Part shown: piece after piece, positions 4,352-63,960 of the stretch
How the letters are laid out: each line of letters starts with the position of its first letter
How positions within the stretch are numbered: the first letter of the stretch is position 1
Source: an uncultured bacterium
GTDB lineage: Bacteria; Omnitrophota; Omnitrophia; Omnitrophales; Aquincolibacteriaceae
DNA length: 64,000 bases
Reading direction: 5' to 3'
Assembly (NCBI GenBank): GCA_964445745.1
Contig: CAYULU010000005.1
Location: forward strand, 211-64,210
Notes under the pieces: generated by a model
Told to the model about the DNA's origin: nothing
The model's database searches: none
Seen by the model: the letters and a program-made list of their open reading frames with translations, nothing else
Made by a program: the position numbers and the translations under genes

Positions 4352-4363
4352 GTGGCCTCCTTT

Positions 4364-12631: not shown

Positions 12632-12660
12632 TTGACAAAGGATAGAGCTATTTCTATAAT
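12632..12660 (+). promoter_or_regulatory. Consensus sigma70-type promoter of the arg operon
   Basis: TTGACA (12632-12637), a 17-nt spacer, then TATAAT (12655-12660). Both hexamers match the consensus perfectly. Confidence 0.7.
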
Positions 12661-12672
12661 ACCTGTCTACGT

Positions 12673-12710
12673 AAAAGGACAGTCGACCAAGAGACTGTCC
12701 TTTTGTTTCC
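12673..12710 (+). promoter_or_regulatory. Terminator-like leader hairpin between the arg promoter and argC (candidate attenuator or operator)
   Basis: A perfect 12-bp stem, aaaaggacagtc (12673-12684) paired with gactgtcctttt (12693-12704), has an 8-nt loop and is followed by gtttcc. It starts about 6 nt after the predicted TSS. No convergent upstream gene exists that it could terminate. Confidence 0.5.
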
Positions 12711-12733
12711 GAAAAGGAGAATCATTGAGTCAA

Positions 12734-14983: not shown

Positions 14984-15072
14984 AAGAAAGGGGATAGGGG
15001 TAGAGGATAGGGAACAGAAATTCGAAAAGAATTTTCTAAACCCTAAATGCTAGATCCTATACGTTAGCAAAA

Positions 15073-15927: not shown

Positions 15928-16003
15928 CGTAAGGTACAGAGGGAACAGCCAAGGATGGCGAGTTTTTTCTGCGGCCTTCGTTGTCCACAAAGTGACAGGA
16001 AAT

Positions 16004-19340: not shown

Positions 19341-19477
19341 AAGATTTTTTCCGCTGTGTTAAAAGCCCTGTGCCAGAGGCGGTTTCACAAGTATTTTCGA
19401 TCCATTATTTTCTTAGGCGTTGAAAAATAAAGAACAGGTTTTTTAAAAGACGGATTCCAAGCGGTAAGGTGATTGAT

Positions 19478-20854
19478 ATGACAAAAAAACTTTGGGGAGG
19501 GCGGTTCAAAAAAGGAATGCATCCGGCGCTCCAGTGTTTTAGCTATTCTCTGAAGACGGACAAAGAACTTTTTGAATCGGAGGTTCTTGTTAATGAGGCG
19601 TGGGCGAAAATGCTCGCCAAAACCGGAATCATTACGGAAAAAGAATCCCACGCAATCCGGAAAGGTCTCGCCACAGTTGCCAAGATGCTAGAGGGACAGG
19701 ATCTGTCCTTGTATGCAGATCGCTATGAAGATATTCACACCCTCATGCAGTCTGAGCTTGAAAGGAAGGCGGGCGCGGTTGCTAAGAAACTGCACACCGG
19801 CCGGAGTCGGAACGATCTTGTCGTGACCTCTACAAGGATCTACCTTAGGGAGAAGGTGCTTGTCACTCAATATGAGATCCAACGACTTCAGAAGGCCCTG
19901 ACGACTGCGGCTCGACGGGCCCACGATTTGATTGTTCCGGGGATGACTCATTTGAGGAAGGCCCAGCCTGTCCTGCTTGCCCATCACCTTCTTGCTTATG
20001 TCGAAATGCTTGAGGAAGACAGGCTACGGTTTTGTGATTTGATGAAACGTGTGAACGTCATGCCGATGGGGTCCGCGGCGCTTGCCGGGTCGGCACTTCC
20101 GATAGATCAAAAGTTTCTGGCAAAAGAGCTTGGGTTTGAAAAGATCGCAACCAACAGTATGGCCGCGGTGAGCGATCGCGGGTTTTTGGCGGAGTTTTTG
20201 GCGGATCTGTCGATTCTCTGGATGCATCTTTCGCGTCTTGCGGAAGATTTTATTCTCTGGAATTCAGAAGCGTTCGGCTATGTGGAACTGGACGATTCGT
20301 TTGCGACCGGGTCAAGCCTTATGCCGCAGAAAAAAAATCCGGATGTTTTTGAGCTTGTGAGGGGGAGAAGCGGGGTCATCTTTGGATATCTTCAGGCGAT
20401 GCTAACCATCCAGAAGGGGCTGGCGCTGTCCTACAACCGGGATCTCCAGGAAGACAAACCGGGAGTTTTTGACGCGATCCACAAAACGACAACCGCCCTT
20501 GCGGTCTTGAGCCTGACGGTTGATTCCCTAAGATGGAATAAGAAAAACATTCTCGGTTCGCTGGAGGATGACACCCTTTTTGCAACGGACATCCTTGAAT
20601 ATTTGGTGCGGAAGAAGGTTCCGTTTAGCGAATCGCACGCTATCGTGGGGAAGGCCGTTCGTTATGCGGCAGACTCAGGAAAGAAGTTACGGGAATTTTC
20701 TTTAAATGACTGGAAAAAATTTTCAACGCGGATCGGAGCCGAGGTTTTTGACCTGTTTGATGCGGCGGCATCTGTCAAAGGAAAAAAAACAATCGGGAGT
20801 ACACATCCGGATCAGGTTGAAAAACAGCTGAAACGGTGGGAACGCTGTCTTTGA
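19478..20854 (+). CDS. argH: Argininosuccinate lyase
   Basis: MTKKLWGGRF...TGRSRNDLV...GSSLMPQKKNPD is the fumarate-lyase signature. An alternative GTG start lies at 19469. Confidence 0.9.
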   Translation: MTKKLWGGRFKKGMHPALQCFSYSLKTDKELFESEVLVNEAWAKMLAKTGIITEKESHAIRKGLATVAKMLEGQDLSLYADRYEDIHTLMQSELERKAGAVAKKLHTGRSRNDLVVTSTRIYLREKVLVTQYEIQRLQKALTTAARRAHDLIVPGMTHLRKAQPVLLAHHLLAYVEMLEEDRLRFCDLMKRVNVMPMGSAALAGSALPIDQKFLAKELGFEKIATNSMAAVSDRGFLAEFLADLSILWMHLSRLAEDFILWNSEAFGYVELDDSFATGSSLMPQKKNPDVFELVRGRSGVIFGYLQAMLTIQKGLALSYNRDLQEDKPGVFDAIHKTTTALAVLSLTVDSLRWNKKNILGSLEDDTLFATDILEYLVRKKVPFSESHAIVGKAVRYAADSGKKLREFSLNDWKKFSTRIGAEVFDLFDAAASVKGKKTIGSTHPDQVEKQLKRWERCL

Positions 20855-48521: not shown

Positions 48522-48718
48522 CTCAAGTAGTTCCTTGTGCGGGCCTTCCTCAATCTCGAAGTTCGTTTATTAGTAGAAAAGTATCTACTTTTAAAGTTTT
48601 TTAAAAAAAATAATCATGTTTCTTCTACCCATCCCGTTCTTAGCTGGCTATCTTGTAATTCGTGAAATGGTTTCACCTGGATCTTGGGACATTTCAAAAT
48701 GACAAGGAGAGCTCGGCA

Positions 48719-51700
48719 ATGAAAGAAGGGCAAGAGGCGTCTAAGGGAAATACAGAATTTCAAGATTCATTAAAAATGCTGATCCAGCATGTGCGCCAAA
48801 AGATGAGCTGGAGAAAACCTGAAAAAGGGTCTCGTGTTTCCAGGAAGATTAAGCGAATGTCGGAAATTTCCAAGCTCCCCGCGCCTTTTGTAATGGCCAA
48901 ACAAGACGGAAAAAAATTTTTCCGAAGTGTCGCTTTGCTAACGGTGTTCTTTTTTACCTGGAATCAGCTAGGATTTTCGGATGGAACGCTTTTGCTGGAT
49001 TACGAGGTTCCGTTTCAAACCTATGTCTCCTCGGCTGGCGGGGGAGATTCGGATTCAGTTCCACAGGGTTTACTCCCGGATCAGCGATCCCATGAAGATT
49101 TTGGCGCAGAAAGTTTGAGCTTTATTGCAGGAAATTCGCCACTTTCAGCTCCTGATTCTACCAGGCCGGATGAACCGGTCCAGGATTCCGGTATCCGCTC
49201 CCTTGAGGGGTCTCAGTCCGTGACGGCCGGGACTGACGAATGGACGCTTGTGTATCGGGATGTTTCTCTTGAACTTCGCGGAGTGAACACGAATACGGTT
49301 GAAGCGGTTAGTGGGCATTACTACCGCGACACCTACGGCAATCCGTTCTATTACACCGATTACAATTATCGGGGCGGTCTGTTTATGCAAAAGACCGGAA
49401 CGACTTCGGATCTGCATACTTTCCGAGGTTTTATGGAAGTGGACCTTTCAGCGTTGTATGAAGAAGACGTTGATCCGGAGCAAATCGCGCGAGTGGAACT
49501 TGTGTTTGACACTGTTTCGGCAAAGTCCGGTTCTTATGCTTTTTCAATTTATGACATGAATGCGAATGAAGACGGACTTTTCCCATCGGGCAGTGCTTCG
49601 GCCGGGACGCATTACACCGGAAGTTCCTCTTTGGTTCAAAGCGTCAAGAAGAAAACATTCAAAAAAAACGTCTCTCAGCAGAGCACGGTTGACGTCACAG
49701 AATCGGTGCTTCGTGATCTGCGAGCCGGGAAATTGTGGACGGGATTTTTCGCCACGCCTGACTCCACGATGCCGAAGATCCAGCTTTCCAATATCCGGCT
49801 CAAGGTCACCTACGGGAAACTGGTACCGCCTGTGACGGGTACAATCGCGATTAATTCAGGCACCACTTATACTTCGTCCCGCACAGTGAAACTGAATCTT
49901 TCCGCAACGGATAACGGCAGTGGAATGGGGGTTGGTGGGATGAGTTTTTCGAACGACAACATCCACTGGACCTCAATCACCCCCTATGCGAAATCCAAGT
50001 CCTATGAACTGCCGTCCGGGGACGGTGAGAAGACGGTTTATGTCCGTTATTATGATGAAGCCGGCAATGTGAGTGAGACGTATTCCACCTCGATCATTTT
50101 AGACACGAGAGGCCCGAAGGGAAAGATGACGGTAAACGGCGGAGAGAAATACATTCATGAGACTACCGTCACACTGAATCTTTCCGCGATGGATGACGGC
50201 TCGGGAGTGGGGAAGATGTGTTTTTCCTCGGATGGTACTTTCTGGACGGAGGTGGAAGACTATGCGGAGACGAAGGAGTGGACGTTCCCGTCCGGCGACG
50301 GTTACAAGAAGGTGTATGTAAAATTCCAGGACAAATCGGGTCGATGGTCGGTTGTGTCCGGGGTCAAAGTGAAGCTGGACACCCAGATTCCGACGGGCAG
50401 TATCAAAATCAATGCAGGCGCGGCGTATACCTCGTTCTCCAAAGTGAAACTGAATTTTACGGGATCGGATAAGGGAAGCGGAATGTCAGGGGTGAGTTTT
50501 TCTTTTGACGGAACGAACTGGGAGCCGCTGGTTCGTTTTGTATCGTCCAAGTCTGTGGTCTTGCCTGCCGGGGACGGGGTGAAGACGGTTTATGTAAAGT
50601 TTTATGACAAGGCGGGGAATGCAAGCCCTGTTTATTCAGATACGATTATTATGGATACGCTCCCGCCGACCGGGACCGTGGAGGTGAATGGTGGCGCCCG
50701 ATTTATTAATCAGCCAGATGTTACTTTAAATCTCAACGCGGTGGATGAAGGTTCGGGTCTCAGCAAGATGCGTTTTTCGAGTAATGGAACGACCTGGACG
50801 AGCGCGGAGAACTATTCGGAGACGAAGGCGTGGACCTTTCCGTCCGGGGACGGTGCCAAGAAAGTGTACGTAAAATTCCAGGACAATAGAGGCCGGTGGT
50901 CGTCGGTTACATCGGTGACAGTGACCCTGGATACGGTTGCTCCGTTGGGCTCGATTGCGATGAACGGCGGTGCGGCGTATACGAACAATCGCGAGGTGAT
51001 GTTGACCTTGTCGGGGACGGATAACGCGAGCGGTGTCTGTCAAATGAGTTTCTCAACCAACGGTACCACGTGGAGTATGGCAGAGGCCTATCAAACCACG
51101 AAATCCTACGTGCTTCCTTCCGGAGACGGGCGGAAGACGGTGTATGTCCGCTATTACGACACGGCTGGAAATGTGAGTATGGTCTATTCCAAATCCATTA
51201 TTTTGGACGTGACCCCGCCGGCGGTTGTCATTGATGTCGAGACGCCAAGTTTGATCAATGTCAAAACGATGATGATCAATTACACGTCGGATGCCATTGC
51301 GAAAACCAAGACATTTGCAGATCTGAAGGAAGGCGAGAATACACTTTCGATCATAGAAAACGACTCTGCCGGAAACCAGGCCATTGCAACCTGGCAAGTG
51401 GTGGTTGACACGATGGCTCCCGCGCTTGTGATTGACGCGACCACACCGAGCTTGATCAATGTCAAGACGTTGACGGTAAACTACACTTTGGACGGGGTTT
51501 TGAAAACGAAGACGTTTTCCGGGCTTTTGGAAGGTGAAAACACGCTTGTGATTACGGAAACGGATCTCGTGGGTAACTCATCGACCACAATCTGGAAAGT
51601 CGAAGTCGATACGATTGCTCCTTCTGGGACGATTGTACTGAACGACGGAGAGTCAGAAACGGGGTCCTGTTCTGTGACCGTTTATGTCAATGTTACGGAT

Positions 51701-54700
51701 AATCGGGTGCTGAAAGATATCCGGTTTTCAACTGACGGTGGCGTGACCTGGTCGGCATGGGAGGCGCATGCTTTTGTGAAGACAGTGACGTTGCCCGAAG
51801 GAGAAGGCGAGAAAGAAGTGCTCTGTCAGGTGCGCGATGAAGCGGGGAATGTCGCCCATTTTTCAGATACGATCCAGTATGCAGTGACGCCACAACTGCA
51901 ATTTCTTTCAGATCCAGTTGTGAACGATCCTCTTTATACGCTCCGCTATATTGTGGATGATAAGGAGCGTGAGGAAACGTGGTTGCTCCAACCCGGAGAA
52001 AACCGGCTGATCGTAAAAACAGGAGTAGCTTCTTCCCAGCGTTTTTTTGAATATGCCGTGACGCTTGACCGGATGGAAGACCCGCTTTCCCCCATGCCGG
52101 AGGTCCCGGTTTTGTCGAATGACCTGGTTTCCATGACTGCTACAAACGGGCTGATTCTGAAATATTCCCGAGGGGAGCTTGTCGCGATTGAAAAGTCAGG
52201 GGCATACACACTCTATCCGACGGAATTCGATTCTCAAAACGAACTTGTCGACGGACTTCTTGTGTTTGCCGATGGCGGTAAACTGCTCTATGAAAACGGT
52301 AGGGCTGCTTATCGCTTAAGCGAGGCCGGTGAGCTGACCACGTACAATGCTGACGGGACTGTCGCGTGTGTCGCATTGGCGGATGGCAAAAAGGTTCGCT
52401 TCGCGTACCGGTATGGTGATGCGGGGGAAATCCTTTCGATCATAAGTTATGACGAAGATGCTACAGGGTTTTATGGAAGCGATTCGAAACCTTTCTGGAT
52501 CAAAAAAAATGACGGAACGGTCATGACCTACCATGAAGGTTTCCTGAAATCCTACCAGGATTCTGCGGGAAATGTTTTTCACTACCAAGTGTCCTCCCTT
52601 TATGAATCGGAACAGCTGACGGGGTATCGATCCGACCTTGCTTTTGTAAGCGTACCTGATGATGGCGAATTAATTCCGTTAGCGGTAGTGCTTGCCAATC
52701 CTAATGATTATGTGTCTGTCCGGGCCACGTTGGAAAACGATTTGTCTCTGACGATGGAGTATGACGTAGCCGGTATGATGAAAAAGGTGGTGTCCGGGTC
52801 GGGAGAAGTACTTGAACTTCAAAAAGGTTTACCGGTTTCTTTTACAAACCAAGCGGGGGAGACTTTGACGGTCCGGACGGATCTTTCAGAAAACCAAGAG
52901 CTTCTTTCCATTTCTTTAGGGGGGAGCAATATTCAGCAGGAATATGACGGCGATGGAAATCTGACGGGGATTCGTTTAAACGATGGTACGACCTTCAGAA
53001 TCCGGGAGCTTGGACTTGATCGTATCGTTCTTGAGGACGGGAGTGATTTGAGTGAGCTTGTTTGGAACGGGAGCCGTTTGACGGGTTTTCGGAAGACGGA
53101 TCCGGACGGAAGGGTTGAGATCTACCAGAACTCCAGGATGACGGAACGCATCGAACCAGACGGCAGTCAGACGTTTTTTGTTGATGACTCCGGCGCCAGG
53201 GAGCCTGAAGAAATCCTGACTTCAGATGGTCGAACTTACCAGGTGATCAGGTTTCCGAACGCGGAAGGGTTAACTCAGAGGTTAGCCCAACTTAAGAGCG
53301 TCGATCTTCCCGACGGAACCCGGATCGAAATTGAGGATGGGAAACCGGTCCGCTACATTCAGACCCGACAGATCCAGATCGAAGCTTTTGAGGTCCCTGA
53401 ACTTGTAACAGGGGAATCATTTGTACCGTTGATCGAGCTCCCCGACGCGCAGCTCCGGTCTCTTACCGTGAATTCGGACGGTTTTATTTATAGCGGCGAG
53501 ATCCTTTTTAATGATGGCACTCAATATTTGATCGAGAACAACAAAATCGCGAGGCAAATAGCCCCCGACGGACAATTTGTGGAATTTTCGAAAGAAATAA
53601 CATCCGTGCCGCCGCAACCAGGTGTTCCTCCGGAACCGCTGACGGAACCGGAGATGGAATACCGGAATCATTTGATTGAGTCACAGATGGATTATTTCGT
53701 GGATGGGGCCGGGATTCAAACTGCTACGGGTTTCCCGGTGGATAACTATCAGGGAGAAAACGATCAGCTGTCCGATTACAGCCAGTCTACTTTGGTTGGA
53801 TTTTGGGCGGAAATTCTCGCGGCGATTGCCACGGGGGATTATCAAACCTCCAGGATGACTCAGACTCAGGCATTTGAAAGGCTTGATCAGCTCCTTATCA
53901 ACTACCGGGAAGTTCAGAAACAGGTGGGATGGAACGGGATGGTTGCTTTTTTCAAAATGGTGGAAATCGAGGAGCCTGTGCTTGATTCTCTGGGGGAACC
54001 CACGGGTGAAACCCGAAACGTGATCCATTATCAAAACTGCTTCAACCAGTACGGGTTTGGAGATGCGGTCAATCTTTCGGTCAGTCTGGCCAGTGTGATC
54101 GGCGCCTTGCGAGGAAAGAATTGGGAACTGGAGAGTGCCGCTACTTGTGCCCGGATCCTCTCCTCGGCGAATGAAATCCTCGAGGCGCAGGAACCCGGAT
54201 ACGCGGCATTTTACGATCCTGTGAAAAAACGATTTCATGGCGCCTATGCCCAGGATCGTTCGACGGGGACATGGTCATTTGTGAAAGATTACTACATTGA
54301 CCGGGTTTTCAATGAGTTTCGGCCCGGCGTGGCCTGGGTCGCGGCAAAGTATCCGCAATATCAGCAAGCCTTTGAGAATCTTGATGTTACGCTTCGCGAT
54401 TACCAAGCTGGTGACGGAACCCAGATGGAAATCGCCGCGCCTTTTGACGGGGGAGCGTTCCAGATGTTTTGGCCGCTCATTCATGTGGATGAGACCCGGT
54501 ATCCGGAGTTTGAGACTGCGCTTCGGAATTTCCTTTATGCCCAGGCAGATTTTACAAGCCAGAACGGGATTCCCGGATTGCTTTCGGCAGGAGACCGTCC
54601 GGGCTCGGGCTACGAAGGAAAGATCGGTCTTTCGTCCGCGGCCGAAGCCGATGACCTGAAGTTCGATGACATTGGTTCTCTTTACGGGACGGCGTCCGCT

Positions 54701-57700
54701 TTCGGGGTGGCACCGCATTACACGCTTCAATTTTTTAAAAATATTGAAACAGCATTCCCCGAGATTCTGACTAGCACAGGTTTTGTGGACGCGATCCGGA
54801 TGCAAACAGTGACTTCCACGGACCCGGTGACGAAGGAGACGGTTACAAAAGAAGAACCGGTTTTTTCAACGCAATATTTTGGTGTCGATCAGGCGTCTTT
54901 TATCCTTTCTCTTCTTAAGACGAGCCAAAAATATTTTGATCAATATTTGAACCAGGAGGGGATAAAGCAGGAATTCGACGGCTTGTACGAGTCGATCCAG
55001 CTTAATTTGAAGCCGGCAAATTCCGGAGGCCTTTCCGTTCCGCCGGCATGGGGGGATTCTTTGGCACAGCTTTATGACGGTGACAGTCTTGCCCCGGATG
55101 GTCTCTCGGCACCGCTTGTCCGTGAAGCGAGCTTTGTCCCCGTTATCTTTGATCCGGAATTGGGTTCCGGGAGAATATTTAATTATCGTCAGGAGAGCGA
55201 AACATTTCATCACAGTGAGATTGAGTTCGGGGAAGAACCTGATGTCAGAAGCCTGGGGGTTCAGGAATATCTGATGCTTCCGGGGCGAGCAGACGTTGGC
55301 CGGGCTTTGCTAGGAGGGTATCAGCTGGATCTTTATAACCAGGCTGGCGCTTCAGGTGTTTTCTACGCGCCTGACCAAGGCTATGCGGAAAGCATGCTGA
55401 TGCGCGACCCGGAGATGGGTGAGGTCCGGCGCGTGATTTTTAATTTCCAGCAACCCGCCCACGCGGTTGGACTCTGGAATAATTACCGGGCGAATCAAAT
55501 AGATATTGGCCAGTTTGATTTTTTGTCGATCCCGGTGCGCGTGGAAGACGATACTCCCGAGAACCTCCGGTTGAAATTTGAGTTTAAGGGGACCGGAAAT
55601 ATTTTTGTGACGGACACGCTCCGGCACGGCTGGCAATACATCACGATCCCGGTGGCGAAGCCTGTGACTGGAAAGGCTTATGAGATTGCCACGGTGATTC
55701 AGTCGGTCGACGGCCAGCCCGTCAAAGGCGGACTTTATCTTGGGCCGCTCTCGGGTTTTAAGGTTCGAACGTCCAATGAGCTGGAGTGGAGTACGATGCT
55801 TGGAAAAACGGCGATTGAGATGCAGACCCTTATCCGGAGCAAGATCGCGACCCAGGCCTTGGGAGCCGGCTTGAAAACCGTCGAGGAAGTCCTGGAAGAT
55901 TTCACTCTGGATTCGAAAGGAAATTTGATCGATGGAACCTTGAGGCGAGCCGACGGAAGTATTCAGTATTTTCGTGACGGACTGATGACGAAATGGATTT
56001 TCCGGAACGGCCGGACGGTGCTTTACGAAAAGGGGATCGCGAATTTTATCGTGGATCTTTCTCGCGGCAGGCTTGAAACGGGACGGTTCTATTACGATCA
56101 GGATCTTAAAGGGGACATTCATTCCTTTAATATCCAGGATAATGAACGGAAGCGAATCTTCGGAGCGGATGGGACACTCCAGACACTTGTCCAGGACGGA
56201 CAATTTGTGGATTTTGAAAACGGAGAGATTGCTTCGATCCGGACTCCTCAGGGAACCTTGACTGATCTGGAGTTTGCGGATGATGGAAGCCTTCTTAAGG
56301 CCCATGCCGTGATGAATGACGGACGCACTTTTGATATTGATCAAAAGACGGAACAAAGCGTGGATATGGGAAATGGGGTTACATTGTATTACCAGGGACT
56401 GGTGATCACGGCGGTTGAAACTTCGCAGAACGGAAGGACCGACCTGGCCTACACTTACGACTCTATGGGGCGAATCACGGGAGTGAACGCGACATTTACG
56501 GATCAGGAGCAAACCCGGACACTCTCGTTTTTCGAATATATCCAGCGGCCGGAACGTTTGCTTGAAAAAAGTCATCTCATGGGAAGTGCGTTTGATGTTT
56601 TCTCCGTGGCGGGAGTTGGCGGTTTTAGTGTGGGGACCTTGGCCAATGGCGAGATCACCTGGGGACTGGGAGGTGATTATGGGTACGATTCCAAGGCCCG
56701 GTACCGGTTTAAATATCTTTCCGAATCCGGTCCGACGCTTGGCATGTGCATGAGCCATACCGACTCTCCGCTCCAGATCTCGGATTACGGATTTCTAAGT
56801 TTGACCGTCCGCCAGGATCCCTCGATGAACTGGAACCAGGATTTTGTGCTGAAGCTAAAGTCGCCGTCCTACAAGACCCTTTACACCTTCAGCCTTGATA
56901 GCACGGTAAACGGTGATCAGACTTTCTGGTTCTCGCTGGAGGATAAGGCCGGGCTTGAGGGGGAGATCACGCTCGAAGTGATCCGGCAAAAAGAAGGCGT
57001 CGGCAAAACCGGAACAATTTATCTCAAAGACCTCTCCTACATGAATATTAAAAATTTAGAGCACCCGATCTGGGAGAATGAACTTGGAATTCTTTCGTCC
57101 CAGATCCGGAACTTCAAAATTGAGTCGGATAACCTTACGGATGTGGGAGCAGGGATCGCGACGAAAGAAGCGGTCCGTTATGAGGCCCTCGTGCCATACC
57201 TGGATACCCCGACCCGGATTTTTTATACCGATACTCAAGGTTCCGAGAATCAACTTGTTAACTTTACCCGTTTAGACGGAAGTCAGGTTGAGCTTGAGGG
57301 CGAACACGTGAGCCGTCTGATTCTTCCTGACGGAACCGTTAACGAATATTCGTCCAACTTTCAAAACTCGACCCAGGGAACGATCGAAGGGCCCGGCGAG
57401 GTCCTTGGAGGAACTTTTGACTACAGGTATGGGGCGCTTCGCCGGATAACCCAGGCGGACGGACGGCAATATGATCTTTCCTACGAATTTGACATGGACG
57501 GGCAAGAGATCACCGTCTTTAAAGATGTCCTGAGCGGGGAAGAACGAAGATTCAGGGATGGAAAACTCGTGAGCGCACAGGATGAAAGCGGTCTCCGGAC
57601 GGATTACGAGTATCATGACGGGACATTGATTGGGGCGGAAATGACCTACCGCGACCGGGTCCTGAACAGCACCCAGTATGCTTATCAGAATGAAGGGACC

Positions 57701-60700
57701 CAGGTTACGGATGAGCGGGGGACGACCTGGTTTTACGATACAAACGGGACATTGATCAAGCATCTGACGAAGGAGGGACTTCTTTATGAATATTCCGAAT
57801 ATGTTCAACCGCTTGAAGCTGGCCAGACCGTTGATTTTCAAGATTACAAAAGCGCGCTTTACGCCGCGAGCGGTTTAAAGGCCGTTAGCCTCAAAGGGTA
57901 CCAGGCCCCGGACGGCTCATGGATCATTTTTGAGGGGGACCAAGGATCCGAAGTTCATCTAGCCTCGGGCACCGTGGCGGTCAATCTCGTATTTGACGAA
58001 GATCAGCGAATCAAAACCGGACAAATCCAGTTTGCGGACGGATTGATCCTTGAAATCGAAGACTACGTTCCGGTCCGGGGACGGCTTGCGGGTGGTTTGT
58101 CATTCGACCAGCCGTTGCCTCAAGCGTCGGCGTATGAAATCGTGCAGGATGAGGAGGGCGGGTTCCTCGGGTTTCAATGCAAGGTTGGGGACTACACGAT
58201 GGCTTATAACGCGGCCGGAGAGCTTGTCCGGGCCGAGACCGGTACGGGTGTTTCTCATCATTTCACCTACACAAAAGACACTCAGGGGCGCTTGACTGCG
58301 GCGACAGAGACGGTGCTTACCCAGGTTGCTTTTAACGGTGTTCCGTTTCCCAAAGAGCTTGAACTTCTTGCCGAGCCAGATCAGAAGATTCTCGATTCCG
58401 GAAAAGAAATTGCACGCCATGAAGGAAGCGGTTTCCTGGTCGGAGTTTACAAGGAAGCCCTGAATCAATGGGATGTTTATTCAGGGAGTTTTTCGTCCCA
58501 AGTAGACCGGACAGGGCTTGAGCATTTTCTATCTGGCATCAAGGCCGGTGAATCGGTGGCCGTGGTAGTTTCCGATTCTTCATTTTCCAAGGCTGGAGAC
58601 ACGATCTTTTCGATTTTCGAAGGGCTTGGGGCAGGACAGGTTCGACAGGCGGTGTCGGCGAACCGGAAATGGACTTTTTTCGGGAATGAGAGATTGAATG
58701 CGGGAGAAGGAAGGGAAGCGATGGACCAGGTTTCCTTTTCAACCGTAACGGAAAGCGTAACAACTTACTCGGCCGACCCTGATTCTAATTCGACTTTTCG
58801 GGATGCTCCGCTGCTCCTGGGTTTTGAAGTGCAGGTATCCCAGGCCTACGATACATTTCTCAAAGAGTACCAGTCGCTCAAACTGGATCGCGACCTTCAG
58901 CGGATGACCGTTTATGACGCGAAAAACGAGATGATTTATACACAGCGGCTTGACGGGCTCAGCTCTTTTTACGAGTTCGGTAAAGTGCGAGAGACTTTCG
59001 ATGAGAACGGGAATCTTTTGAGCCTCCATGAATATGGTTGTCTGTCTGGGGCCGGAGCAGTACCGCCTTGCCAAAATTCCGAAGACATTGCGCTGTCCAG
59101 GATTACGCTTGTCAAGGCACGTCAGGATTTAGAAACCGAGGTGCAGGATGCTTCCGTAAAAATTGCGCAGGCCAAATTCGACGCGCTTTATAAACTGGCC
59201 TGGCAGGATGATGTGGCGTGTCTCCAGATCAAGGAAAGTGTGGATGCGGGTGTTGTGGAAATCAATCGTCAAATTTCGAGTCTCGAGTCTCAGCGATATC
59301 AGACCGTCAAACAATGCCGCCGGGTTGTCTTCTGGAAGCATTGTGAAGAGCATACCTACGAAGTGCCCGGGGTCCAGAGCGCGATTAACGGGCTTGTGAG
59401 CCAGCGGGCTGACTTGATCCGGACCGGGGAAGAACAGCTTGCGGCCATCCCCGGAGCCATGGCTGAAAAACAGCTTGAGATTGAACAGACAACCGCTGAA
59501 AAAATGGCGGAGCTTGAGGCACAAAAGCAAAGCGTTATGCTGGATCTTCTCCATCAGGAAATGGAACCGATTCTCACAGATTTTTACAGGCGAATTCTCG
59601 GGCGAGACGTTTCTGATGAGGAATTTGACGATTGGGTGGATCGTTTTAAGGTGGCGGAAGAGATCGATACTTTGACTCTTGAGACGGAACTCTCTGAATC
59701 ACCGGAACGGGGCATGCGCGAAGCGGAGAAGGCCTTGATCCTTCAAGGGGTTCGGGATTTTCTGGGCGACTATCTCGCGTCTTCCGTTGAGGAGAGGGCT
59801 TTGATGCTTCAGGAACTTCGCCTGGATACCTCGGAGGTAGTCGATTTTGATTTAACCGATGTGGACGCCATACTTGCCTGGCTTGAAAGCCGGGATCTTC
59901 ACTTTGGCCAGTCCGCATTTCTCTCCTTAAAGAAGATGCTCGCGGCAAGCGGTGCGGAGGTTTTGATGGCGGTGTTGGGCCGGGAATCAATCCTGATTGA
60001 TATCTTGACTGGGACAATCCACAAATTTACGGAAGGGGATCTTCTCATTTCCATGTTCGCGCTCGATCGGGCCGCGTTGATTCACGCCCGGGATTTTGCG
60101 GTGGTGAGGTATTCCTTTGAGGATTTGAAGCATTTGTATCAATCCGCCTGCGGATCTCAGACGCCGGTCTGCGGTATCCGGGTCATTGCTCATATCGGAG
60201 AAGACCATTTTGTGCTCGTCAAGAGTGTGACGGAGACGGAGGTCACTTATGAGGAAACCGGCAAAGGGATGGAGGGTTCGGATGTTACTGTGACCCGGGA
60301 CCAATTTCTCAGTGTGTGGAACGCGAAAGGCGATTCGGGATACCTGATGGTGGACGAATCTCAAGTGATTTCGGAGAAGCGGCTTTCGGATCGGGAGGCC
60401 ATGCGGGTCCGCGGGGCATTTTTTATTATATTCTTTTTTGTTGCGTCGATTATTTTAACGGTAGTGAGTGTTGCCGTCTCTTTTTTCAGTCCCACGCTGG
60501 GCAAGATTCTCGGCTATGCGGCCCTGGTGGCCGGGATTATCGGGATCGTGGCAAGCCTGGGCCAGCTGGTGATTCAGGGTCTGCAGATGGCCTTTTCGAA
60601 TGTCGCAGCGCAGGGGTTTTTCTCCACGATGACCCAGGGGATCATAAACCTCGGGAAAGTGATCTGGGAGTCGGTGAAATCGGTGGGGCGGTTTGTTCTG

Positions 60701-63079
60701 GAAGGGTTCCAGTTTTTGAAGGGTGGTTTTACCGGAGGGTTTGGAAGTTTCGGAGCCGGGATTACGGACATGCGAGGTTTTCTTTTTGACGGGGCTCGTG
60801 TGCTTGCGGACGGCACGCGGGAATTTACATTTTCGCAGATCGCGGCACGACAGCTTGTGACGGCAGGGCTTACGTCGGGCGTTTCGGTTGGGCTGGAAGG
60901 ACTCGGGATTGATTCGCGGATTGCGGGGCTCGTCGGTGTTTTTGCGGGGGGCGGGTTTTTGGGGATCGGTACATCAGTTTCCGGATTTCTGAAAAGCGGT
61001 CTTCAACAGCTTGTTTTGCAAGGTGTTTCCGAAATGGCGGTTCACATCGGTCTTCCGCCCCCGGTGTCGGGCGCGCTTTCGCTGATCGCGACCCAAAGCC
61101 TCAGCGCATTTTTTGATCCCACGCTTACTCTCAAAGCCGCTCTTATCGATATTGCCCCCACCGCCGCCCAGATGTTGACCCTGGGCGGCCTTGAACTCCT
61201 CGGCCGATCCATGGGTCTTGATCCCCAGCTTGCATCTCTCATCGGATTGCCCGTTGCCGCAGCAGTAGGAGGCGTTACAAAAGATCTTTTAAATCCAAAC
61301 GGTATGACATCCTTGTGGCAATCCATCCAAAATGCCATCCTGAGTTGCGAAGTGGCAGGTGGCATTCTTTCTTTAGGCGCTTCGATCGCAGTTCATGAAT
61401 TAGGACTGGATCAATCGCTGCTTGGATCTTTATCCAGTCGTCTTGTTGCCGGTGCGTTTAGTGATTTCCTGGCGTCACCGGGTAAATTCAATTTTGTTGA
61501 TAGTATTATCAAGTCAGTAGATGGATCTTTTTACGAGTTCTTTGACCCGGCATTTCTTCCTATGCTTTTCGAAACAGTCATGGATCATGGTTTGGCGGAT
61601 GGGATCGAGCAATACGCTATCATGCTTTTCACAAAGGAAACAATCAATGAGATCGCATCTTCAGGTATGAATCTGGGTCAGTGGATCGCAAGAGGATTGC
61701 CGGCAGCTGAAGATGTTGTTTATCAAGGGGAACAAGCCAAACGTCTCCGTCTTGTCCAGAACGGAAAATCCATCAATTTTGTTTACCAGCCCAAAGGTGA
61801 AAAATTAGAATTGCAGGCAATCTATGAAGAATATTCCAACGGCCGCAAGCCCCGGCTTGTTGAATTCACCACGGATGATGAGGGCAGGATTACGCAAGTC
61901 ATGATCATCGAGCAAATGGCGGATGGGACCTTTCGGCAGGATGTTCTTACGCCGACGGGGAATATCAAGGAAGTGATTCTCCGGGATTGGAACGATGAGG
62001 TGTATGGAAAAGTATCTTACAATGCGGCCGGTGAACTTGAATTCACAAATTATAACCTTGGCATTTCTGATTATCTTACGGCGGATGGGCGTTTCAGGTT
62101 TGATTTTACGACGGCTCCGGATTTTCAGGACATGAGTCAGCTTATTTACGATTTTAATACGAATTTGAAACCCGAGGATATCGCTCAGTTAACGGCCTTT
62201 TCTTATGGGAATGGTTTCTGGAATGCTCATCAGTCGCCGGATTCTATTTCAACGATTATGAATGCTTTTATCGATGACCGGCTGGTCGATAACGCGAAGA
62301 CAGGGACGCCTGCGGTCGTGCTCTTTGAAGCTAATGGAGAAATCGCTCGGGACCGGCACGGAAACATCCTCACTACGGTAGCGCTTCCCGTAACACTCTA
62401 TGAAGAAACCAGTTTAGTGGGAAATATTCTTCGCTGGTCTGCGGGAACGTGGTTTGGGGTTCCTACGATGCGTGACGAAGTCGAAAGAGAATTAATTCGT
62501 TATTTGGACCTTATTGAGTTGAACCAGAGAGAATTTAATCTCGATCCCAACATGGATTTTGTCCACTTTGCCCATTCAGGGGATTTCCAGCCCATGATTG
62601 AAGCGCTGGAACATATGCCGGATGAGTACCGTTCCCTCATCAAAACGCTTGTGGTTTACGAGGGGCCTTATGTGGGCGACGGAATTATCAATGATCCGTA
62701 TCTTGAAACGCTTATTCGTGTGCGTGGTGTAAAACCTGGTTTTGAGGTGCCGTTTCTTGAGCATCAAGATTTCCAGATCACCGATCAGAATGGTAATGTC
62801 AAAGCTATTCTAAACCAGTACAATATCGAAATTGCTGGAGCGAACCATAACGACTTCAGCTATGATCCGTCATTCACGTACAGTTGCGCTGAAGAGCGAG
62901 AGATTGCCAGAAAAACGAGTTTATTTATGAGAGATTTGCAACTCCAAGCCAATAATGTTTCACGGCTAGACTTGTTCCTCAAAACGAATACTGTGGGCGG
63001 AGTGACTTATGATAAAAAAACGAAACTTATTTCGGTAAATCCTTTGATGTATAAATCCCCCTTTGGAGACAGACAGTGA
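48719..63079 (+). CDS. Giant membrane-anchored mosaic surface protein or toxin-like protein (about 4,786 aa from ATG 48719; 4,805 aa from GTG 48662)
   Basis: A single uninterrupted ORF. The ATG at 48719 is preceded by aaggagag. The N-terminal TM anchor is FFRSVALLTVFFFTWNQLGF. Downstream modules, in order:
- eight Ig-like repeats
- dispersed YD/RHS-like repeats (YTYDSMGRITGV, EYDGDGNLTGIRL, YEFDMDGQEITV)
- a glucan-hydrolase-like alpha/alpha-barrel region
- a DUF4214 motif (DFYRRILGRDVSDEEFDDWV)
- a C39-like domain
- a glycine-rich hydrophobic block
- a C-terminal hydrolase-like module. Confidence 0.85.
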   Translation: MKEGQEASKGNTEFQDSLKMLIQHVRQKMSWRKPEKGSRVSRKIKRMSEISKLPAPFVMAKQDGKKFFRSVALLTVFFFTWNQLGFSDGTLLLDYEVPFQTYVSSAGGGDSDSVPQGLLPDQRSHEDFGAESLSFIAGNSPLSAPDSTRPDEPVQDSGIRSLEGSQSVTAGTDEWTLVYRDVSLELRGVNTNTVEAVSGHYYRDTYGNPFYYTDYNYRGGLFMQKTGTTSDLHTFRGFMEVDLSALYEEDVDPEQIARVELVFDTVSAKSGSYAFSIYDMNANEDGLFPSGSASAGTHYTGSSSLVQSVKKKTFKKNVSQQSTVDVTESVLRDLRAGKLWTGFFATPDSTMPKIQLSNIRLKVTYGKLVPPVTGTIAINSGTTYTSSRTVKLNLSATDNGSGMGVGGMSFSNDNIHWTSITPYAKSKSYELPSGDGEKTVYVRYYDEAGNVSETYSTSIILDTRGPKGKMTVNGGEKYIHETTVTLNLSAMDDGSGVGKMCFSSDGTFWTEVEDYAETKEWTFPSGDGYKKVYVKFQDKSGRWSVVSGVKVKLDTQIPTGSIKINAGAAYTSFSKVKLNFTGSDKGSGMSGVSFSFDGTNWEPLVRFVSSKSVVLPAGDGVKTVYVKFYDKAGNASPVYSDTIIMDTLPPTGTVEVNGGARFINQPDVTLNLNAVDEGSGLSKMRFSSNGTTWTSAENYSETKAWTFPSGDGAKKVYVKFQDNRGRWSSVTSVTVTLDTVAPLGSIAMNGGAAYTNNREVMLTLSGTDNASGVCQMSFSTNGTTWSMAEAYQTTKSYVLPSGDGRKTVYVRYYDTAGNVSMVYSKSIILDVTPPAVVIDVETPSLINVKTMMINYTSDAIAKTKTFADLKEGENTLSIIENDSAGNQAIATWQVVVDTMAPALVIDATTPSLINVKTLTVNYTLDGVLKTKTFSGLLEGENTLVITETDLVGNSSTTIWKVEVDTIAPSGTIVLNDGESETGSCSVTVYVNVTDNRVLKDIRFSTDGGVTWSAWEAHAFVKTVTLPEGEGEKEVLCQVRDEAGNVAHFSDTIQYAVTPQLQFLSDPVVNDPLYTLRYIVDDKEREETWLLQPGENRLIVKTGVASSQRFFEYAVTLDRMEDPLSPMPEVPVLSNDLVSMTATNGLILKYSRGELVAIEKSGAYTLYPTEFDSQNELVDGLLVFADGGKLLYENGRAAYRLSEAGELTTYNADGTVACVALADGKKVRFAYRYGDAGEILSIISYDEDATGFYGSDSKPFWIKKNDGTVMTYHEGFLKSYQDSAGNVFHYQVSSLYESEQLTGYRSDLAFVSVPDDGELIPLAVVLANPNDYVSVRATLENDLSLTMEYDVAGMMKKVVSGSGEVLELQKGLPVSFTNQAGETLTVRTDLSENQELLSISLGGSNIQQEYDGDGNLTGIRLNDGTTFRIRELGLDRIVLEDGSDLSELVWNGSRLTGFRKTDPDGRVEIYQNSRMTERIEPDGSQTFFVDDSGAREPEEILTSDGRTYQVIRFPNAEGLTQRLAQLKSVDLPDGTRIEIEDGKPVRYIQTRQIQIEAFEVPELVTGESFVPLIELPDAQLRSLTVNSDGFIYSGEILFNDGTQYLIENNKIARQIAPDGQFVEFSKEITSVPPQPGVPPEPLTEPEMEYRNHLIESQMDYFVDGAGIQTATGFPVDNYQGENDQLSDYSQSTLVGFWAEILAAIATGDYQTSRMTQTQAFERLDQLLINYREVQKQVGWNGMVAFFKMVEIEEPVLDSLGEPTGETRNVIHYQNCFNQYGFGDAVNLSVSLASVIGALRGKNWELESAATCARILSSANEILEAQEPGYAAFYDPVKKRFHGAYAQDRSTGTWSFVKDYYIDRVFNEFRPGVAWVAAKYPQYQQAFENLDVTLRDYQAGDGTQMEIAAPFDGGAFQMFWPLIHVDETRYPEFETALRNFLYAQADFTSQNGIPGLLSAGDRPGSGYEGKIGLSSAAEADDLKFDDIGSLYGTASAFGVAPHYTLQFFKNIETAFPEILTSTGFVDAIRMQTVTSTDPVTKETVTKEEPVFSTQYFGVDQASFILSLLKTSQKYFDQYLNQEGIKQEFDGLYESIQLNLKPANSGGLSVPPAWGDSLAQLYDGDSLAPDGLSAPLVREASFVPVIFDPELGSGRIFNYRQESETFHHSEIEFGEEPDVRSLGVQEYLMLPGRADVGRALLGGYQLDLYNQAGASGVFYAPDQGYAESMLMRDPEMGEVRRVIFNFQQPAHAVGLWNNYRANQIDIGQFDFLSIPVRVEDDTPENLRLKFEFKGTGNIFVTDTLRHGWQYITIPVAKPVTGKAYEIATVIQSVDGQPVKGGLYLGPLSGFKVRTSNELEWSTMLGKTAIEMQTLIRSKIATQALGAGLKTVEEVLEDFTLDSKGNLIDGTLRRADGSIQYFRDGLMTKWIFRNGRTVLYEKGIANFIVDLSRGRLETGRFYYDQDLKGDIHSFNIQDNERKRIFGADGTLQTLVQDGQFVDFENGEIASIRTPQGTLTDLEFADDGSLLKAHAVMNDGRTFDIDQKTEQSVDMGNGVTLYYQGLVITAVETSQNGRTDLAYTYDSMGRITGVNATFTDQEQTRTLSFFEYIQRPERLLEKSHLMGSAFDVFSVAGVGGFSVGTLANGEITWGLGGDYGYDSKARYRFKYLSESGPTLGMCMSHTDSPLQISDYGFLSLTVRQDPSMNWNQDFVLKLKSPSYKTLYTFSLDSTVNGDQTFWFSLEDKAGLEGEITLEVIRQKEGVGKTGTIYLKDLSYMNIKNLEHPIWENELGILSSQIRNFKIESDNLTDVGAGIATKEAVRYEALVPYLDTPTRIFYTDTQGSENQLVNFTRLDGSQVELEGEHVSRLILPDGTVNEYSSNFQNSTQGTIEGPGEVLGGTFDYRYGALRRITQADGRQYDLSYEFDMDGQEITVFKDVLSGEERRFRDGKLVSAQDESGLRTDYEYHDGTLIGAEMTYRDRVLNSTQYAYQNEGTQVTDERGTTWFYDTNGTLIKHLTKEGLLYEYSEYVQPLEAGQTVDFQDYKSALYAASGLKAVSLKGYQAPDGSWIIFEGDQGSEVHLASGTVAVNLVFDEDQRIKTGQIQFADGLILEIEDYVPVRGRLAGGLSFDQPLPQASAYEIVQDEEGGFLGFQCKVGDYTMAYNAAGELVRAETGTGVSHHFTYTKDTQGRLTAATETVLTQVAFNGVPFPKELELLAEPDQKILDSGKEIARHEGSGFLVGVYKEALNQWDVYSGSFSSQVDRTGLEHFLSGIKAGESVAVVVSDSSFSKAGDTIFSIFEGLGAGQVRQAVSANRKWTFFGNERLNAGEGREAMDQVSFSTVTESVTTYSADPDSNSTFRDAPLLLGFEVQVSQAYDTFLKEYQSLKLDRDLQRMTVYDAKNEMIYTQRLDGLSSFYEFGKVRETFDENGNLLSLHEYGCLSGAGAVPPCQNSEDIALSRITLVKARQDLETEVQDASVKIAQAKFDALYKLAWQDDVACLQIKESVDAGVVEINRQISSLESQRYQTVKQCRRVVFWKHCEEHTYEVPGVQSAINGLVSQRADLIRTGEEQLAAIPGAMAEKQLEIEQTTAEKMAELEAQKQSVMLDLLHQEMEPILTDFYRRILGRDVSDEEFDDWVDRFKVAEEIDTLTLETELSESPERGMREAEKALILQGVRDFLGDYLASSVEERALMLQELRLDTSEVVDFDLTDVDAILAWLESRDLHFGQSAFLSLKKMLAASGAEVLMAVLGRESILIDILTGTIHKFTEGDLLISMFALDRAALIHARDFAVVRYSFEDLKHLYQSACGSQTPVCGIRVIAHIGEDHFVLVKSVTETEVTYEETGKGMEGSDVTVTRDQFLSVWNAKGDSGYLMVDESQVISEKRLSDREAMRVRGAFFIIFFFVASIILTVVSVAVSFFSPTLGKILGYAALVAGIIGIVASLGQLVIQGLQMAFSNVAAQGFFSTMTQGIINLGKVIWESVKSVGRFVLEGFQFLKGGFTGGFGSFGAGITDMRGFLFDGARVLADGTREFTFSQIAARQLVTAGLTSGVSVGLEGLGIDSRIAGLVGVFAGGGFLGIGTSVSGFLKSGLQQLVLQGVSEMAVHIGLPPPVSGALSLIATQSLSAFFDPTLTLKAALIDIAPTAAQMLTLGGLELLGRSMGLDPQLASLIGLPVAAAVGGVTKDLLNPNGMTSLWQSIQNAILSCEVAGGILSLGASIAVHELGLDQSLLGSLSSRLVAGAFSDFLASPGKFNFVDSIIKSVDGSFYEFFDPAFLPMLFETVMDHGLADGIEQYAIMLFTKETINEIASSGMNLGQWIARGLPAAEDVVYQGEQAKRLRLVQNGKSINFVYQPKGEKLELQAIYEEYSNGRKPRLVEFTTDDEGRITQVMIIEQMADGTFRQDVLTPTGNIKEVILRDWNDEVYGKVSYNAAGELEFTNYNLGISDYLTADGRFRFDFTTAPDFQDMSQLIYDFNTNLKPEDIAQLTAFSYGNGFWNAHQSPDSISTIMNAFIDDRLVDNAKTGTPAVVLFEANGEIARDRHGNILTTVALPVTLYEETSLVGNILRWSAGTWFGVPTMRDEVERELIRYLDLIELNQREFNLDPNMDFVHFAHSGDFQPMIEALEHMPDEYRSLIKTLVVYEGPYVGDGIINDPYLETLIRVRGVKPGFEVPFLEHQDFQITDQNGNVKAILNQYNIEIAGANHNDFSYDPSFTYSCAEEREIARKTSLFMRDLQLQANNVSRLDLFLKTNTVGGVTYDKKTKLISVNPLMYKSPFGDRQ
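49825..51890 (+). repeat. Array of eight tandem Ig-like domain repeats inside the giant ORF (coding repeats)
   Basis: Repeat units begin at about 49825, 50112, 50388, 50664, 50941, 51217, 51418 and 51620. The consensus is P.G.I.INGGA.YT....V.L.L.A.D..SG...M.FS.DG..W...E.Y...K...LPSGDG.K.VYV...D.AGN. Confidence 0.8.
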
Positions 63080-63960
63080 AAAACTTTTTTGGGGGAGGTG
63101 TGTGTGGGTGTGTTTTCCTAGCTTTTTTTTTCCTTTTTTTCTGTTCATCTCTTGAGGCGAAGTCGCCAATGTCAGATGCCGACTATCAACAGGTTCTGAA
63201 TGATCAGGCCGACTATCATAGCTTTTTGAGAGAAGCTGACCGATGGGAGTGCCAACGCGATTATGGGCGCGCAGTTTTTTTTCATGAAAAAGCTTTCTTT
63301 ATGGCGAAGGGAAGTAGCTTGGAGCCGGTTTCGCGTGGTGAGTTGGCAAGGCTGTATGAGTTGGATGGGCAATATGAAAAAGCTTTAGAAGAGATCGACT
63401 GGTTCCTGGTTAAGTCAAACAAATCTTCCCCCCTGTGGGATAGATTTGTAGATTCAAGACAACGACTCCTTCAGAAAATCGAAGCGCAGATGCGAGGAGA
63501 AAAAATTGAAGAGCCGAATTCTGCAAACGTTGTTTCTCAACAGAAGCAATTAATTCGGAGAATATCGGATTTCCACACAGCGGGTTATGACGATCAAAAG
63601 CAATTTCTCGAAAAAGAGCTTCCCGAGGGTACGGATATCCTGCGGCTGTCCAAACGGGCAATGCTGGCTGAGCATGCGGGGAATTTTAAGGACGCTAAAG
63701 GGTTTTACGAACAGCTACTGGCTCAAAAAGAGGGTGTTGCGGCCGTGTACGGGGAAGCTGCTTGGGTAATGCTCCATCCTGCTGTTCAGCGCATGTCTGA
63801 ATTGACCGGAGATGAGACGCGAGAAAAAGAGATGCTCGTTTGGATTCGTGATTATATGTTAGCCCCAGATGGACAACACCATAAGTATCTTAACGGGCTA
63901 ATGCCGCCTGTTCAGGGCCATCTCAAGGAACGTCTCAAAAAGTTTGGTCTCAATTCTTAG
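63076..63960 (+). CDS. Secreted helical-repeat (TPR-like) protein, translationally coupled to the giant gene
   Basis: 294 aa. Its GTG start overlaps the giant-gene stop (GTGA). The signal-peptide-like N-terminus is GGGVCGCVFLAFFFLFFCSSLEA. The remainder is predicted helical, with TPR-like YxxA/L spacing by eye only. Confidence 0.6.
   Translation: MKNFFGGGVCGCVFLAFFFLFFCSSLEAKSPMSDADYQQVLNDQADYHSFLREADRWECQRDYGRAVFFHEKAFFMAKGSSLEPVSRGELARLYELDGQYEKALEEIDWFLVKSNKSSPLWDRFVDSRQRLLQKIEAQMRGEKIEEPNSANVVSQQKQLIRRISDFHTAGYDDQKQFLEKELPEGTDILRLSKRAMLAEHAGNFKDAKGFYEQLLAQKEGVAAVYGEAAWVMLHPAVQRMSELTGDETREKEMLVWIRDYMLAPDGQHHKYLNGLMPPVQGHLKERLKKFGLNS

Follow-up and report, generated by a model that had tools for sequence, protein, structure and literature searches.

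What is the role of a long, glycine-rich hydrophobic block near the C-terminus of a giant bacterial protein, and does it belong to any known kind of membrane-active domain? The question is raised by a stretch of 64,000 nucleotides from an uncultured member of the Omnitrophota (GenBank assembly GCA_964445745.1, contig CAYULU010000005.1, positions 211 to 64,210 of the forward strand), the whole of which is called the window here. On its plus strand, positions 60410-61480 translate without stops to amino acids (aa) 3917-4273, i.e. 357 residues, of a giant open reading frame (ORF). A preliminary description of this DNA had proposed that two transmembrane (TM) helices are followed there by a glycine-zipper-like region with a thrice-repeated motif, placed between a protease-like and an enzyme-like domain and reminiscent of the translocation or pore-forming regions of large toxins. 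The analysis presented below finds a conserved, helical, low-charge repeat of four units, held at a fixed position between domains that can be identified on both sides. In the best-supported reading, the block is at the heart of a conserved domain not described before, which makes up, together with the TM hairpin in front of it, one membrane-proximal module. This module may lie in or on the producer's own membrane and serve for anchoring and positioning, a role to which we give a probability of about 0.5.

A four-fold helical repeat conserved in a large family

The three motif strings noticed in the preliminary description lie at aa 4080-4098 (60899-60955), 4183-4204 (61208-61273) and 4246-4264 (61397-61453), and these, like the two TM helices, had been placed correctly to within a few bases. 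The repeat is real, but it was not fully captured by three copies of one motif. The strict pattern G[LI]Dxx[LI]xxL[IVS]G is met by copies 1 and 2 only, with copy 3 (GLDQSLLGSLSS) one residue off, and there are four copies in all. The additional one lies between copies 1 and 2 ('HIGLPPPVSGAL', where the G of GLP is aa 4130; the strings quoted for it are IGLPPPVSGALSL and HIGLPPPVSGALSL), and in distant relatives its position reads G-[IL]-D-P, as in the other copies. Each unit follows the pattern xG[VI]xxLGxxLG[LIV][D/P][P/S], after which comes a helix rich in small residues; a rough consensus of the units is xG[VI]xxLGxxLG[LIV]DPx[ILV][ST]xL.

In shuffles of the block, at least two copies of the strict motif arose in 0 of 20,000 cases and at least one in 0.03%, and the presence of four matches to G[LIVM][DNP][PSQ] has P = 5e-5 by the same procedure, values that are indicative only, as the motifs were defined after looking. 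For this reason, a stronger test was made with profiles of the units themselves. The alignment of 84-86 family sequences was cut into four non-overlapping units, whose profiles were compared with hhalign, and all six pairs aligned in register (probability 73-96.5%, E 8e-10 to 3e-5). The AF2 model, built from 22 sequences, is all-helical over the block (mean pLDDT 57, pTM 0.36; pLDDT 56-72 in the repeat core, aa 4035-4234), and its helices begin directly past each D/P, at aa 4085, 4133, 4188 and 4252. Since each D/P stands right before the start of a helix, the motif can be read as the end of a helix, a glycine turn and an N-cap. In terms of the predicted structure, it is thus a structural junction repeated four times, with a G-h-[D/P] cap that would start the next helix.

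When the profile of the block was compared with 1.84 billion representative proteins, it retrieved 176 clusters at E <= 1e-3, 99 at 1e-10 and 28 at 1e-30, the proteins of which are mostly of 3,000-5,600 aa. Among the retrieved proteins longer than 2,500 aa, which number 69 and have a median length of 3,634 aa, the block ends at a median of 545 aa before the C-terminus. Conservation is position-specific, includes invariant residues and is still seen at about 20% identity. A search with the last 1,066 aa found 12 relatives, and the three with a source name are labelled Omnitrophica or Omnitrophota. A single-protein query gave no close relative among the GTDB species genomes; two further word-indexed searches with alignments gave 5 and 2 matches, and low-complexity words probably saturated the glycine-rich one of them.

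The sequence that follows the block is mostly shared as well, as 106 of 118 tails match the profile of the window's tail and 12 are unrelated. The first ~180 aa of the tail are common to about 93 of the 118, and the terminal enzyme domain to about 55-60, with a different end domain in a few relatives, such as Peptidase_C92 in P0006. Relatives had seemed to differ past the block, which had suggested a polymorphic-toxin cassette. With so many related tails, the impression of freely swapped C-terminal domains is largely wrong, and that reading was downgraded.

Gly accounts for 14.8% of the block, Leu for 14.3%, Ala for 10.6% and Ser for 9.8%. The share of charged residues is 10.6% in aa 3972-4273 and 23.2% in the protein outside the 357-aa block. 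The repeat helices are of 19-27 residues and have low hydrophobic moments (0.08-0.22), and those that follow the caps reach Eisenberg mean hydrophobicities of 0.36-0.56. On a crude Hessa-type scale, membrane insertion would be borderline for two windows of the block, at aa 4087 (+3.2) and at aa 4226 (+3.6). All windows of the N-terminal 3,900 aa, by comparison, stay at +5 or above, and just 0.15% of them are under +7. Taken together, the low charge and the character of the helices suggest a repeat that is buried, in lipid or within a tight oligomer, and not one exposed to solvent. The glycines, for their part, do not have the spacing of a zipper: the block contains 8 GxxxG, where shuffles give 7.66 +/- 2.33 (P 0.52), 7 [GAS]xxxGxxx[GAS], where they give 6.42 (P 0.45), and one GxxxGxxxG, where they give 1.12. 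As these spacings are at the frequency of the shuffles, the term glycine-zipper-like describes composition only, and the corresponding reading of the block was dropped.

Both TM helices ahead of the repeat hold up on hydrophobicity, with Kyte-Doolittle 19-mer maxima of 2.91 for TM1 and 2.30 for TM2. Their crude Hessa-scale sums, -3.4 and +0.2, are the only ones below +3 among all windows of the 4,805 aa, and the hairpin is kept in close relatives. In a fragment that is 98% identical (P0001), the first ~55 residues are wholly different over TM1 and the rest is near-identical, a divergence that is probably due to a frameshift or to an assembly error of a short contig. The linker that joins the hairpin to the repeat contains a strongly amphipathic helix at aa 3986-4023 (hydrophobic moment 0.50). 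In relatives, the segment between the motif that precedes TM1 and the first repeat has a length of 107-276 aa, and the median share of charged residues in it is 7%. A crude count of the TM segments in it (0, 1 or 2) was not used because glycine-rich segments defeat the scale.

That the block could not be assigned to a known family still holds after these searches, as no family match was found in Pfam, NCBIfam, PHROGs, PDB sequences or solved structures. The last 1,066 aa as query gave no Pfam, NCBIfam or PHROGs family either, and phmmer with the block against the PDB returned nothing relevant; PDB searches, whether with the single sequence or with family profiles, were informative only for the domain upstream of it. 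The toxin translocation and pore domains considered were those of large clostridial toxins and MARTX, the diphtheria T domain and colicins, and a Pfam search at E <= 10 gave only a chance-level match to 'Goodbye' (E 0.74). Similarly, Pfam searches detected no pre-toxin or toxin family in the protein. Homology to a transporter or membrane-protein family had been named beforehand as a finding that would speak against the toxin idea, and no such match was found for aa 3917-4273 in Pfam, NCBIfam or the PDB, by profile, sequence or fold. As far as homology goes, the idea of toxin translocation or pore formation appears to be neither excluded nor supported.

The cassette around the repeat and its genomic setting

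In order, the fixed C-terminal cassette of these Omnitrophota-type surface proteins consists of a C39-like domain, a double-glycine-type motif, the TM hairpin, the four-repeat block, a sheet of beta-hairpins and a Ser hydrolase (Table 1). The upstream domain had been called protease-like. In the PDB, the family profile of aa 3735-3922 finds C39 peptidase domains, namely those of PCAT1 (E 7e-7), LahT150 (E 0.005) and ComA (E 0.25), and Pfam Peptidase_C39 is matched with E 0.08 by the window protein and with E 1.6e-5 by its relative P0095. His3849 is aligned with the catalytic His of PCAT1 'AHFVV' and is invariant in 81 sequences, as are H3747, F3748, S3751, A3752, S3797 and G3869; G3749, D3780 and G3784 are near-invariant (99%) in the same set. 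A conserved Cys nucleophile was not found in the domain, where no column has Cys in more than 23% of the 81 sequences. Cys-less C39-like domains occur, such as in HlyB. The N-terminal part of the domain contains the invariant H3747-F-G-x-S3751-A, and its 77 aa align to no solved C39 domain; the position of the Cys may be taken by either Gly3749 or Ser3751.

Right after this domain stands a short motif with the family form [LI][ST]xx[EQ][AT]xx[IV][RK]G[AS]. Its positions are numbered -12 (L/I), -11 (S/T), -8 (E/Q), -4 (I/V/L), -2 (G) and -1 (A/S), and the frequencies among 81 relatives are 94% for L/I, 78% for S/T, 72% for E/Q, 99% for I/V/L, 94% for R/K, 100% for G and 98% for A/S. A strict regular expression is satisfied by 70 of 106 relatives; judged by eye, the motif also fits the majority of the others. 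Double-glycine leaders have the consensus LSxxELxxIxGG. We take the family motif to fit it at six of seven positions (-1, -2, -4, -8, -11 and -12), with A/T and not Leu at -7. It seems unlikely to be a coincidence that a motif of the type recognized by C39 domains directly follows a C39-like domain in the same chain and borders on a TM helix. The candidate cleavage site would then be G3918-A3919, just before F3920.

Downstream, the region after the repeats is the most widely shared part of the tails. Its beta-hairpins have an AF2 pLDDT of ~70-84 and its short helices one below 50; Foldseek matches of the hairpins are weak, for instance to OspA-like sheets and Rhs/teneurin in the PDB, and to MORN-repeat and YwqK-like proteins in BFVD. 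The C-terminal domain was rightly suspected to be enzyme-like. No sequence library recognizes it, and its AF2 model (pLDDT 86.3, pTM 0.88) gives Foldseek matches that, among those listed, are overwhelmingly alpha/beta-hydrolases (lipase, cutinases/PETases, thioesterase). The top ones are Streptomyces lipase 1JFR, cutinases/PETases and a Legionella protein, with a probability of ~1.0 and a TM-score of only 0.33-0.48. In the model, strand 137-143 is followed by a helix that begins with Ser4639, which thus lies at the strand-helix elbow, and both Ser4639-Gly and His4729 are invariant across relatives. The column of the triad acid has Asp in 81% of relatives; here it is Pro4692, with Glu4695 three residues on.

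Table 1. Features of the giant ORF and of the gene that follows it in the window.
Feature	Position	Strand	Extent in protein	Remarks
Giant ORF	48662..63079	+	4,805 aa	ORF list and translation; contains the block under study
Signal-peptide-like segment KKFFRSVALLTVFFFTWNQLGFSDGT	48911..48988	+	aa 84-109	Read by eye from the translation
C39-like papain-fold domain	59864..60376	+	aa 3735-3905	His3849 in 'EDHFVLV'; no conserved Cys
Double-glycine-leader-like motif LSDREAMRVRGA	60383..60418	+	aa 3908-3919	Last residue abuts TM1, which begins at aa 3920
TM hairpin	60419..60574	+		TM1, six-residue loop SPTLGK, TM2; from hydrophobicity
TM1 FFIIFFFVASIILTVVSVAVSFF	60419-60487	+	aa 3920-3942	
TM2 ILGYAALVAGIIGIVASLGQLVI	60506-60574	+	aa 3949-3971	
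Hydrophobic and amphipathic helical linker	60575..60868	+	aa 3972-4069	AF2, pLDDT <50 over most of it
Four-fold helical repeat	60869..61531	+	U1 aa 4070-4117, U2 4118-4172, U3 4173-4235, U4 4236-4290	
Conserved post-repeat region	61532..62053	+	aa 4291-4345 and 4349-4464	Short helices, then beta-hairpin stack (61706-62053)
Divergent alpha/beta-hydrolase	62147..63076	+	aa 4496-4805, 310 aa	Ser4639 in 'AHSGD', His4729 in 'GANHNDF'
Downstream TPR-like gene	63076..63960	+	294 aa	Hydrophobic N-terminus; Pfam TPR_14; start overlaps the stop of the giant gene

The start of the giant ORF at GTG 48662 is a mechanical assignment, and the true one may lie farther downstream. This GTG sits ~83 codons ahead of the signal-like segment, and the true start is probably an internal Met codon, e.g. 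'MSEISKLPAPFVMAKQDGKKFF'. By Pfam and NCBIfam, the giant ORF contains Big_13, Big_3_2, four OmpL47-type barrels, RHS/YD repeats and ILEI, together with a weak match to Glycoamylase (Pfam E 0.082; best stretch aa 2002-2084). The Glycoamylase-matching part lies at ~53700-55300 (aa ~1690-2230), so that the ectodomain may include a domain like that of glycoside hydrolases, in place of which Glyco_hydro_2_C/CBM30 or Glucodextran_B is found in distant relatives. In addition, PF27344 'MJECL34' is on record for two distant relatives (P0095 at locus L035 and P0052 at L037), downstream of their ILEI domain.

The window is an ordinary segment of chromosome that encodes UvrA, FtsH, DnaJ, GpsA, a FadL-type outer-membrane protein and arginine biosynthesis. 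The UvrA sequence shares 93% identity with that of Candidatus Omnitrophica bacterium UBA1443, and Omnitrophota also account for the ~20 matches that come next. The arginine-biosynthesis cluster is at ~12632-20854. Upstream of the giant gene and on the same strand, there are also a second large ORF (30602-35323; 1,573 aa, with SdrD_B and FlgD_ig domains) and a gene for an AsmA/YhdP-like protein of 853 aa (9215-11776). The TPR-like gene that overlaps the end of the giant gene is found at other loci of the family, namely L036 (48% identity, E 6e-79) and L037 (E 8e-5); it is marginal at L035 and absent from L038, so that the arrangement occurs in 3-4 of 5 loci overall. Its product is likely a conserved partner of the giant protein, and it could act as a partner, a chaperone or an immunity protein.

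Possible roles of the module

In the membrane-module reading, which we prefer, the TM hairpin and the hydrophobic linker would be followed by four tandem helix-turn-helix units of ~50-60 aa. Within each unit, a helix ending in L-G would lead into a G-h-D/P-P/S box, which would cap the next helix, of ~20 residues and rich in small residues. The block would be embedded in a lipid bilayer or rest against it, the simplest candidate being the cytoplasmic membrane of the producer, next to the hairpin, and its repeats would form a tightly packed, possibly oligomeric, helical bundle. Such a bundle could serve as the anchor of the giant ectodomain and keep the C-terminal esterase/lipase-like domain at a membrane surface. 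The Cys-less C39-like domain may dock on, and perhaps cut, the G-A site at the start of TM1, and the ectodomain would thereby be linked to the membrane module or released from it. An extracytoplasmic location is suggested by the N-terminal signal-like segment together with the domain content of the first 3,800 aa.

Several observations weigh against this reading. Given the weak AF2 scores, the packing of the helices is not established, and Foldseek searches against the PDB and BFVD gave no helical match for the block, as only the beta-hairpin part that follows it was matched. On the crude scale, TM1 and TM2 alone would insert unaided; the repeat helices would not and, therefore, may not span the bilayer. 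Moreover, the sequence ahead of TM1 has a far more basic character than the loop between TM1 and TM2. By the positive-inside rule, this basic stretch would suggest a cytoplasmic location, in conflict with the simple topology. Finally, on sequence alone, the membrane concerned may be the producer's own or that of a prey.

If it were a prey membrane, the module could serve for delivery: once cut off at the G-A site, the last 886 aa (hairpin, block and hydrolase) would leave the producer, and the block would enter the membrane of the prey and translocate or position the hydrolase, in the manner of toxin translocation domains, glycine-zipper effectors or tape-measure proteins. Polymorphic toxins are built on a template in which repeats are followed by a releasing peptidase and a C-terminal toxin (PMC3482391), and the layout here is parallel to it, with RHS/YD repeats upstream of the block, a processing-type motif exactly at the junction and a lipase/cutinase-like hydrolase at the end. 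The low charge and the two marginally hydrophobic helices of the block also fit delivery, as do the few swapped ends (Peptidase_C92 in P0006 and the 12 unrelated tails of 118), and the exported TPR-like protein encoded next to it could be an immunity protein. Glycine-rich hydrophobic segments permeabilize membranes in Tde1 (PMC10240207), and one study has linked giant Omnitrophota proteins to predation (10.1101/2023.11.21.568195). There are, in addition, the matches to a tape-measure PHROG in P0009 (E 1.5e-8) and P0006 (2.9e-5), with clean controls. Nevertheless, the block has no sequence similarity to a known translocation or pore domain and no apparent fold similarity to one, GxxxG is not enriched in it, the C39-like domain is without a Cys nucleophile, and the tail is mostly conserved (106/118), not polymorphic. 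The PHROG match, furthermore, is absent from the window protein and is lost when P0009 is trimmed, and tblastn against phages came out empty. Delivery is, on this balance, somewhat unlikely. It is distinctly improbable that predatory Omnitrophota use the whole cassette as a self-contained weapon for membrane insertion, which would process itself by cutting its own cis site and free the 886-aa unit to enter a prey membrane. In such a weapon, the cutting may be done by Ser3751/His3849 or by a partner, the lipase-like hydrolase may be carried in, and the TPR protein may provide immunity or act as a chaperone; in that case, the four-repeat block would represent a class of protein-translocation or pore domains not known before.

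The likeness to tape-measure proteins could also be taken as true homology, the hydrophobic central region of such a phage protein having been acquired by a cellular giant protein. In an alignment scan, 7 of 22 family members match phrog_1272 ('tail length tape measure protein'; best E 3.5e-9). Five close relatives match it at profile positions ~764-1191, which overlap the block, and with E 1.5e-8 to 4.5e-3: in P0009, the match covers aa 108-610, and the four others are weaker. Reversed and shuffled P0009 give no tape-measure match. However, P0009 trimmed to aa 66-620 retains only phrog_58 (E 0.0024), the window protein has no PHROG match even at E <= 10, and three distant full-length relatives do not match phrog_1272. 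The window module and P0009 found nothing by tblastn in 50,697 phage genomes, the BFVD fold search gave no tape-measure matches, and the neighbours of the giant gene (FadL, GpsA, DnaJ, FtsH, UvrA and arginine biosynthesis) are housekeeping genes, not a phage tail module. With matches this weak and unstable, the likeness appears to be one of resemblance and not of membership, and homology is very unlikely. Helix-turn-helix units in tandem, with Gly/Pro conserved at the turns, are a typical trait of soluble repeat scaffolds, and the block might instead be a periplasmic or extracellular helical repeat that is tethered by the hairpin and binds a partner (the TPR protein, the ectodomain, a glycan or a lipid). 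Such a scaffold would agree with repeat helices that do not insert by themselves on the crude scale and with the presence of a conserved partner gene, but a charge of 10.6% is atypical of a soluble surface, near-zero hydrophobic moments are atypical as well, and AF2 gives no confident solenoid, which makes it unlikely. Hardly credible, in turn, is a low-complexity hydrophobic spacer in which the motif recurs by chance. The composition is strongly biased to G, L, A and S, as it would be in a spacer, yet a linker of this kind was dropped on account of the 176-cluster profile family and the in-register repeats, and it does not account for the position-specific conservation down to ~20% identity or for the fixed place in the architecture.

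Comparison with known systems

Annotation is scarce for the giant proteins of Omnitrophota, for which a link with predation has been drawn. The boundaries of the cassette turn ~1,070 unannotated aa, in at least 176 protein clusters, into testable parts, and a specific candidate cleavage site and catalytic residues are now offered for mutation. Should the block be membrane-active, it would be a new membrane-insertion domain; should it not be, it would still define a new family of domains, a marker of the end at which these proteins are anchored in the membrane. The interest would be high only if membrane insertion or self-processing were demonstrated.

Several systems share some of these features. 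Two preprints on giant proteins of Omnitrophota report C39 domains and C-terminal TM anchors (West-Roberts et al. 2023, 10.1101/2023.11.21.568195; 10.64898/2026.06.07.730766). The protein of the window resembles those in phylum, great length, Ig-like and carbohydrate-related domains, C39 and TM segments near the C-terminus, but its 4,805 aa are below the cut-offs for 'giant' given there, and no SecA-like domain was found in it. The passages that term searches of both preprints returned contain no mention of the four-repeat block, the cis double-glycine-like site or the Ser-hydrolase end. In the transporters PCAT1, ComA and LahT, the C39 domain likewise directly precedes TM helices, and the catalytic His of PCAT1 is aligned with that of the domain described here. 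In C39 ABC transporters, however, the recognition motif is at the N-terminus of a small exported peptide, whereas here it is in cis inside a 4,805-aa protein that has neither a conserved Cys in its C39-like domain nor an ABC transporter domain.

The remaining likenesses concern the hydrophobic block and the general layout. With phage tape-measure proteins (phrog_1272, phrog_58), the protein shares long G/A/I/L stretches and TM-like helices ahead of a C-terminal enzyme, but it has no phage context and no BLAST or fold match to them. The glycine-zipper regions of the type VI secretion effector Tde1 and of VacA (PMC10240207) are also hydrophobic, small-residue regions on an enzymatic domain, and the block is conceivably membrane-active like them. 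Nevertheless, a zipper has 40-50 aa, in contrast to ~300 aa in four repeats of ~55 aa, and there is no homology and no GxxxG enrichment. Polymorphic toxins and Rhs proteins (Zhang et al. 2012, PMC3482391) have in common with it a signal-peptide-like segment, Ig-like and RHS/YD repeats, a papain-fold domain before the C-terminal enzyme and a small gene directly downstream. In the protein of the window, by contrast, the C-terminal domain is mostly conserved, the peptidase is without a nucleophile and the downstream gene is TPR-like. The hydrophobic modules of large surface or toxin proteins and the recognition of double-glycine motifs by C39 domains are of kinds already known, and what appears to be new is the four-repeat block and the arrangement of domain and motif in cis.

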